Below, piece by piece: positions 3,007 to 3,262 of a stretch of DNA of 31,908 bases. The position numbers and the translations under genes are program-made. Numbering within the stretch: the first letter of the stretch is position 1; each line of letters opens with the position of its first letter. The notes beneath the pieces are model-generated. The model saw only the letters and a list, made by a program, of their open reading frames with translations, did not search any database and was not told the origin of the DNA. The stretch comes from Desulfovibrionaceae bacterium (lineage in GTDB: Bacteria; Desulfobacterota; Desulfovibrionia; Desulfovibrionales; Desulfovibrionaceae), in NCBI GenBank assembly GCA_017613475.1, contig JAGADT010000157.1:1-31908 (forward strand), written 5' to 3'.

Positions 3007-3043
3007 GCTCCGTGGGCACATTCTCCGAAAGGAGGGTAAGCCC

Positions 3044-3142
3044 ATGCTGCACTTTCGTGAGGTAATGCCTCCCGGGCAGTGCTGGCCTCTTTTTTGGGCC
3101 GACTGCTGGCTGATTTGGTTAAGCGTCTGTTTGACTAAATAA
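3044..3142 (+). CDS. Small ORF of module 2, putative type I toxin, probably frameshifted
   Basis: AAAGGAGGG SD at 3028-3036 inside a GAAA-capped hairpin. In frame it gives 32 aa (MLHFREVMPPGQCWPLFWADCWLIWLSVCLTK). The alternative frame 3079-3138 gives VLASFLGRLLADLVKRLFD*, which looks more like a toxin helix. Confidence 0.5.
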   Translation: MLHFREVMPPGQCWPLFWADCWLIWLSVCLTK

Positions 3143-3146
3143 GTTC

Positions 3147-3180
3147 GCCCCGGTGAGAGGTTAGCAGCTCTCATCGGGGC
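3147..3180 (+). other. 13-bp stem-loop immediately after the module 2 stop codon
   Basis: GCCCCGGTGAGAG-GTTAGCAG-CTCTCATCGGGGC; same position and CCCCGG/CGGGG core as 1879-1913. Confidence 0.7.
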
Positions 3181-3223
3181 ATAAAGCTTTGCGAGACATT
3201 TAATCGCGGAGAACGTGCCCCAC

Positions 3224-3262
3224 GGGGCAGGGGTGTTGACGCACTCCCTGCCCCTCTTTTAT
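3224..3262 (+). terminator. Terminator of small-peptide mRNA 2
   Basis: GGGGCAGGGGTG(3224-3235) pairs with CACTCCCTGCCCC(3242-3254), followed by TCTTTTAT. Confidence 0.7.

Follow-up and report, generated by a model that had tools for sequence, protein, structure and literature searches.

A probable toxin-dead copy of a multi-copy type I toxin-antitoxin-like cassette in gut Desulfovibrionaceae

Background

Near the start of a Desulfovibrionaceae contig (JAGADT010000157.1, assembly GCA_017613475.1), a start codon that can be buried in RNA secondary structure opens onto an odd, Trp/Cys-rich reading frame, and a helix resembling a small toxin lies out of frame with it. Which of the two frames is the gene, what separated them, and to what kind of element do they belong? 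An initial annotation proposed a toxin like Fst, Ldr or AapA, inactivated by a 1-nt deletion or broken on paper by an assembly indel. Throughout, “the window” refers to the whole stretch of DNA that we analysed, which is 31,908 nt long and carries the locus of interest at 2976–3286.

The question reaches beyond one locus. Catalogues of type I toxin-antitoxin systems are drawn almost entirely from Enterobacteria, Helicobacter and Firmicutes, and the module family described here fills a gap for the gut sulfate reducers. Taken alone, the broken copy is an ordinary pseudogene, save for an undecayed helix and a copy-specific run of six Ts (T6) that leave a small chance of residual expression; the module family to which it belongs is uncatalogued and of moderate interest.

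Results and discussion

Layout and fold of the window copy

The module is a predicted mRNA of about 250 nt within a cassette that spans 2976–3286. Its parts are listed below by window position and strand, together with the Shine-Dalgarno (SD) and anti-SD elements.

2976–3004, + strand: predicted sense promoter (−35 TTGTCT at 2976–2981, 17-nt spacer, −10 TATGGT at 2999–3004)
3011–3026, + strand: 5′ switch segment, made of anti-SD 1 (CUCC) and the anti-start GUGGGC (from the fold and from pairing across copies)
3027–3046, + strand: GAAA loop (3027–3030), SD GGAGG (3031–3035) and start codon ATG (3044–3046)
3044–3142, + strand: frame-broken ORF with an unconserved, Trp/Cys-rich product of 32 amino acids (aa) (coding 3044–3139, stop 3140–3142)
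3057–3070, + strand: 14-nt insertion GTGAGGTAATGCCT, which causes the frameshift (placement ambiguous by a few bases)
3071–3138, + strand: out-of-frame remnant of the family peptide, ...RAVLASFLGRLLADLVKRLFD, with stop TAA at 3136–3138 (from translation)
3090–3095, + strand: T6 run (from sequence reading)
3147–3180, + strand: GC-rich post-stop hairpin (from pairing and compensatory changes)
3208–3220, + strand: 3′ segment GGAGAACGUGCCC, an SD mimic and the partner of the 5′ switch segment
3224–3260, + strand: sense terminator hairpin and U run (from the fold; position kept in all aligned copies)
3258–3286, − strand: predicted antisense promoter (−35 TTGACG at 3286–3281, 17-nt spacer, −10 CATAAA at 3263–3258)
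3132–3251, − strand: putative antisense RNA, starting near 3251 and about 110–120 nt long if it ends past the post-stop hairpin, its presumed 3′ end

Sequence reading and folding recovered all of the features that the initial annotation had listed for this copy. The SD hairpin, which had been placed at 3023–3034, is formed by UUCUCC-GAAA-GGAGGG, with 3020–3026 paired to 3031–3037, and the helix described over the start codon joins CGUGGGC (3011–3017) to GCCCAUG (3040–3046) and covers the ATG at 3044–3046. The complementarity suggested between the 5′ end and 3208–3228 was likewise borne out: the core, 3014–3026 against 3208–3220, matches at 12 of 13 positions, and its extension to 3007 and 3228 needs one bulge. 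The 5′ switch segment can thus take either of two partners, the local SD and AUG or the 3′ segment, which lies some 190 nt farther downstream, directly ahead of the terminator. The minimum free energy of the 256-nt window RNA is −128.6 kcal/mol (z-score −7.1), and none of 200 shuffled sequences was as stable. Translation returned both the Trp/Cys-rich 32-mer in the ATG frame and the out-of-frame amphipathic helix that had been reported.

The family peptide and its reading frame

The helix frame opens after the TGA at 3058–3060, reads GNASRAVLASFLGRLLADLVKRLFD and closes at the stop codon 3136–3138. Intact relatives use this frame, encoding peptides of 26–27 aa (39 aa in one genus) from an ATG that lies exactly 8 nt past GGAGG; across 16 copies, little or no variation is seen in GAAAGGAGG, in the 8-nt spacing or in the ATG. 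The peptides fall into two subfamilies, an amphipathic one that ends in LFD, as in MPHFLRAVLVNVIGRLLVALVKRLFD on contig C163 of the window's own genome, and a hydrophobic one, as in MKHFLRDVLAAFVAGILVALVVRFLNL on contig C54 of the same genome. Six intact 26-aa peptides have LFD at the C-terminus. The remnant helix of the window copy shares 17 of 20 residues with the peptide that an uncultured Desulfovibrio MAG, RUG12860 (L029), encodes intact, and is amphipathic (hydrophobic moment muH 0.52); the LFD subfamily has a muH of 0.48–0.60, being amphipathic, unlike a classic transmembrane helix.

The WPLFWADCW (Trp/Cys) frame was neither open nor conserved in any relative examined. Conservation of that frame was the outcome that the initial annotation had named as counting against its reading, and we found the opposite, as relatives conserve LLADLVKRLFD. 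With the helix frame conserved and the Trp/Cys frame not seen elsewhere, the former represents the ancestral gene. Alternative starts in the window copy offer little: the GTG at 3079 would serve the helix frame without an SD, and the ATG at 3065, just 2 nt from GAGG, does not lie in the helix frame. The ratio pN/pS is 0.44–0.62, with too few sites to separate the coding frame clearly from another frame.

Copies in the same genome and in relatives

In the window's own genome, a 1.3-Mb MAG that is 74% complete, a DNA profile found at least nine module copies. Module 1, also in the window (1694–2037), has the same layout around an unrelated 23-aa hydrophobic peptide (1804–1872); modules 1 and 2, the latter being the copy under study, flank a hicA/hicB pair (2216–2811, − strand). 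The family peptides, with the RNA layout around them, recur in three Mailhella MAGs, in uncultured Desulfovibrio and in Desulfovibrio piger ATCC 29098, whose module lies at L026:6600-6949 and whose peptide has 27 aa; since D. piger ATCC 29098 is a cultured strain, the family is directly testable. A covariance model of the 5′ element matched in 16 of 151 Desulfovibrionaceae genomes, and inspection by eye established full modules in eight genera or more, some of them as tandem arrays.

The distribution is patchy, in that the module was not found in the four congeners of the window genome that we searched. These four congeners also lack the neighbouring SBF transporter, so that the genus provides no orthologous site for an empty-site comparison. 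Searches of JGI metagenome contigs with an allele-specific pattern and with an LFD-subfamily pattern gave no further alleles, and plasmid and phage collections gave no match to the module.

The lesion and the decay of module copies

An alignment of 14 full modules places 14 extra bases at 3057–3070 of the window copy, directly past codon 5. Of the other 13 aligned copies, 12 lack these bases, and the last, Mailhella L018:137-486, carries a 13-nt tandem duplication of its own (GGGATGTGCTGGC) within the same short part of the ORF, which likewise shifts its frame. As 14 is not a multiple of 3, the frame is lost in the window copy. The lesion is therefore an insertion instead of the 1-nt deletion that had been proposed, and the 31-aa peptide obtained by a one-base repair has no counterpart among family members. 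No second copy of the inserted bases was found in the genome within 2 mismatches. We also considered a duplication of the downstream ORF as their source and set it aside, since only 8 of 16 positions are shared and a duplication is hence unrecognisable. The helix has remained free of decay while out of frame, which fits a recent lesion and also leaves room for continued use. Together, these comparisons support the reading of the window copy as a frame-broken, putatively toxin-like gene on an mRNA with a predicted SD lock.

Three ORFs of the family were found inactivated, each in a different way. Besides the window and Mailhella L018 copies, a degenerate copy on another contig of the window's genome (C191:2489-2787, − strand) stands in tandem with an intact one, with its SD changed to GAAAGAAAG and its ATG to ATA; it keeps the terminator and the antisense promoter block. 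Both of these other dead copies retain the terminator and the downstream conserved block, and the window copy keeps every RNA element while the insertion puts the peptide out of frame. In this module family, the ORF is lost first while the RNA parts stay. The window copy illustrates this course of decay, which matters for the annotation of small-ORF repeats in metagenome-assembled genomes.

RNA structure across the family

Over 14 copies, pairing in the long-range helix that joins the 5′ end to the 3′ end (13 bp) reaches 96.7%, and 4 of its 13 pairs show compensatory changes; when the partner was slid by 1–3 columns as a control, pairing fell to about 50%. In the same number of copies, the local lock on the SD and AUG is 91.8% paired. 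The post-stop hairpin is 96% paired, with compensatory changes at 8 of 13 pairs, and its G-U pairs fit the + strand. An alignment-free test on 26 distinct copies from several genera gave a consistent picture, with a 12–13 of 13 complement located 173–194 nt downstream of the start of the 5′ segment in 20 copies; complements this good were mostly matched by 0–1 of 200 shuffles. Covariation of the partners is seen, for instance, in CAAGUCC with GGACUUG and in CACGACUU with AAGUUGUG.

The energies of the local and long-range forms lie within about 5 kcal/mol of each other in 13 of the 14 copies (range −6.6 to +4.7). According to the folding model, the long-range form would leave the AUG unpaired with a probability of 0.5–0.99 in 13 of the 14 copies (0.06 in the C54 copy of the window's genome) and would move the SD to a weaker, UUCCUCC-like partner within codons 4–6, and blocking the 3′ UTR would leave the SD and AUG almost fully paired. 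Because the SD is mostly paired in every modelled state (at most 0.32 unpaired), the route of activation is uncertain. We regard the family as an unusually clean, covariation-supported case of an mRNA that would toggle between a local SD lock and a 5′-3′ helix.

Predicted promoters and antisense RNA

In the predicted sense promoter, the TTG of the −35 box is invariant in all 14 aligned copies, and the promoter block of the window copy (2967–3011) is 89% identical to that of module 1 (1694–1738). The box scores 8 out of 12, which is under the threshold of the consensus scan; transcription of the sense RNA would start from it.

On the minus strand, a TTGAC box is followed after 17 nt by a −10-like box that overlaps the U run of the sense terminator in 19 of 26 modules from several genera. 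Five further modules have TTGC(G/T)T, a 16- or 17-nt spacer and TATATT or TATCAT at the same place, so that the position of the promoter-like box is kept in 24 of 26 modules while its sequence drifts. A fixed position with bases that drift between genera argues for function. The box is also retained in toxin-dead copies. Most of the antisense −10 boxes end in A, not T, and in the window the consensus scan calls neither the sense nor the antisense promoter, both being under threshold.

The predicted antisense RNA folds into three hairpins (z-score −4.2); its complement would be the sense 3′ UTR, with the 3′ segment at 3208–3220 among the bases covered. The G-U pairs of the post-stop hairpin favour folding of the sense strand, which weakens the case for this hairpin as an antisense terminator. 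A conserved minus-strand protein was also considered and rejected, as the open stretches vary in length and content. Between the 3′ UTR of the window copy (3140–3262) and the intact LFD paralogue on C163, a run of 19 nt in the loop and 3′ arm of the terminator matches exactly, and the predicted antisense RNA of the dead copy could cross-pair with that paralogue.

Proposed explanation and alternatives

We propose that 2976–3286 is probably a toxin-dead copy of an uncatalogued, multi-copy type I toxin-antitoxin-like cassette of gut Desulfovibrionaceae, with a predicted antisense RNA that overlaps the 3′ end. In an intact copy, the nascent mRNA would be locked by the local hairpin, in which anti-SD 1 covers the SD and AUG, and the finished mRNA could switch to the 5′-3′ form, opening the AUG. 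The minus-strand promoter over the terminator U run would produce an antisense RNA against the 3′ UTR; with the 3′ segment taken up by this RNA, the 5′ segment would go back to locking the SD and AUG tightly, so that the peptide stays off, and the duplex between this RNA and the mRNA would probably be marked for cleavage. When the antisense RNA is absent, the long-range form would prevail, with the AUG exposed and the SD on its weaker partner in codons 4–6. The intact peptides would act as membrane-active toxins. The window copy, dead as a toxin gene, may still supply the RNA parts.

One might instead suppose that there is no toxin-antitoxin system at all, and that the modules encode a small peptide, of membrane or amphipathic type, that does no harm and is tightly riboregulated, with the minus-strand box kept merely as part of the repeat unit. 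Such an account, which we judge unlikely, is helped by the predicted status of both toxicity and the antisense RNA, by the weakly informative pN/pS and by the poor −10 boxes. It fits less well with a family that is multi-copy, arranged in tandem arrays and patchy (not found in the four congeners searched), with the recurrence of ORF-killing lesions that leave the 3′ parts in place, and with the double sequestration of SD and AUG. The promoter box is moreover fixed in position across genera while the flanking bases change, and the two modules of the window flank hicAB.

We consider it very improbable that the 32-aa Trp/Cys-rich peptide, to which the frameshift in the window copy gave rise, is a new functional, possibly membrane-active product, given that it was found in no other copy or genome examined, that a TGA closes the same frame in paralogues and that it matched no protein family; its appeal lies in the retention of the family SD and start, in a hydrophobic C-terminal stretch (mean hydrophobicity 0.45) and in a stop just 4 nt beyond the old one.

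The T6 run at 3090–3095 suggests another way in which the copy could remain active. The run is absent from the aligned paralogues and unique to the window copy, and a −1 slip there would, speculatively, rejoin the C-terminal half of the helix. Ribosomal or transcriptional slippage of this kind would yield a 31-aa hybrid with the tail LGRLLADLVKRLFD at a low, regulated level. The setting (U UUU U ahead of a rare Trp codon in the ATG frame) and the undecayed helix downstream, with its 17 of 20 identities to an intact relative, speak for slippage, but the site departs from the canonical X XXY YYZ heptamer, no stimulatory structure at a suitable spacing is apparent, six Ts are few for slippage during transcription, the N-terminal half of the hybrid is unlike any family member and the allele is confined to one lineage, so that we place very little weight on it.

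Finally, a sequencing or assembly artefact masking an intact gene, a concern raised by a fragmented MAG (194 contigs, 74% complete), by the proneness of repeats such as this module to misassembly and by the T6 run inside the ORF, is hardly credible, because the lesion is 14 nt long and no homopolymer miscount, and because an independently assembled ENA contig (L020) that has 20 differences from the window over 5243 positions, none of them within the intergenic region 2812–3374, carries the identical module with the insertion and T6 length unchanged, and a third contig has the same flanking-gene spacing of 563 nt. The assembly indel suggested by the initial annotation is thus very unlikely, and we retain the reading of a genuine, toxin-dead copy.

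Comparison with known systems

No catalogued family claims the module. Rfam gave no match at gathering score anywhere in the window, and in 1600–3350 only chance-level matches on terminators. With the Pfam model of Ldr (PF13940), the best score was 14.1 bits against a cut-off of 27 (hydrophobic paralogue on C54, E 0.05), and with the NCBIfam model of a Clostridioides difficile type I toxin (NF047374) it was 18.1 bits against a cut-off of 60 (D. piger peptide, E 0.0026); the LFD subfamily, including the window copy, matched neither. The earlier likening to Fst, Ldr and AapA therefore holds as an analogy of design and fails as a statement of membership.

Two hallmarks of type I systems are present: intact relatives have a hydrophobic or amphipathic ORF of <60 aa with its own SD (frame-broken in the window copy), and the primary transcript folds, in silico, so as to hide the SD. 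The family also has conserved long-distance 5′-3′ pairing of the aapA/IsoA and hok/Sok type. It does not share the further features of those systems, namely a 3′ partner that hides the SD or 3′ trimming that activates, and an antisense RNA at the 5′ end.

The closest regulatory parallel is bsrG/SR4 of Bacillus subtilis (also txpA/RatA, bsrE/SR5 and yonT/SR6), with which the module shares a small helical peptide ORF and, if the predicted antisense RNA exists, its convergence on the mRNA 3′ end. SR4 binds the 3′ end of bsrG mRNA, promotes its degradation and, from a distance, strengthens the sequestration of the SD (PMC3834814), and the proposed model shares this logic. Unlike in bsrG/SR4, the host here is Gram-negative, the antisense RNA is a prediction and a covarying 13-bp 5′-3′ helix would link the 3′ end to the SD; there is no sequence similarity between the two. 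T1TAdb, which comprises 24 families and does not mention Desulfovibrio in the main text, lists the 3′-overlapping antisense arrangement in Gram-positives only (PMC8594479).

In Helicobacter pylori, the aapA3 mRNA has successive anti-SDs and a 5′-3′ interaction (PMC6733600). The module resembles aapA/IsoA in a primary transcript that is not translatable (as modelled here), in anti-SDs in the 5′ UTR and ORF, in a conserved 5′-3′ interaction and in chromosomal multi-copy occurrence (PMC6733600). The parts are deployed differently, however. The 3′ element of aapA is an anti-SD that traps the SD, whereas the 3′ element here mimics the SD (GGAG) and has anti-SD 1 as its partner; IsoA covers the aapA mRNA at its 5′ part, whereas the predicted antisense RNA lies at the 3′ end; and, in folding models, removal of the 3′ end would lock the SD here instead of freeing it.

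With hok/Sok, the module has in common a full-length mRNA that folds back from 5′ to 3′, alternative 5′ structures and a small peptide. It differs in having neither a mok-like leader ORF nor, by consensus scan, a 5′ Sok-like promoter, in a peptide of half the size and in giving no Rfam match. TisB and other amphipathic type I toxins are short helices on which charged residues line one face at intervals, a pattern that the LFD subfamily may share; IstR-1 is divergent from tisB and lies 5′ of it, a regulatory layout unlike that of the module family.

These differences leave room for a more ambitious interpretation, which we offer as distinctly doubtful. The family might represent a new type I design, a three-partner switch in which the antitoxin RNA spares the ribosome-binding site and captures the SD mimic in the 3′ segment, which would otherwise draw the anti-SD away from the SD, and dead copies such as that of the window, with its 19-nt match, might persist as donors of cross-acting antitoxin RNA.

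Additional observations on module copies

Several copies outside the window's genome have peculiarities of their own. In the Desulfobulbus alkaliphilus DSM 24258 assembly, a contig of 380 nt with 0.85x coverage (L024, NZ_JAFFQC010000455.1) matches D. piger ATCC 29098 in its module start and ORF and probably represents contamination of the Desulfobulbus assembly. On the reverse strand of L011, at about 1490–1620, only the 3′ half of a module is present (post-stop hairpin, 3′ segment and terminator), following an excisionase or HTH-like ORF; this partial module lacks the minus-strand TTGAC box and may have been left behind at the boundary of a mobile element. Lastly, three modules in tandem on one contig (L033, L048 and L055), about 475 nt apart, all start with TTG, not ATG, which may attenuate their translation.
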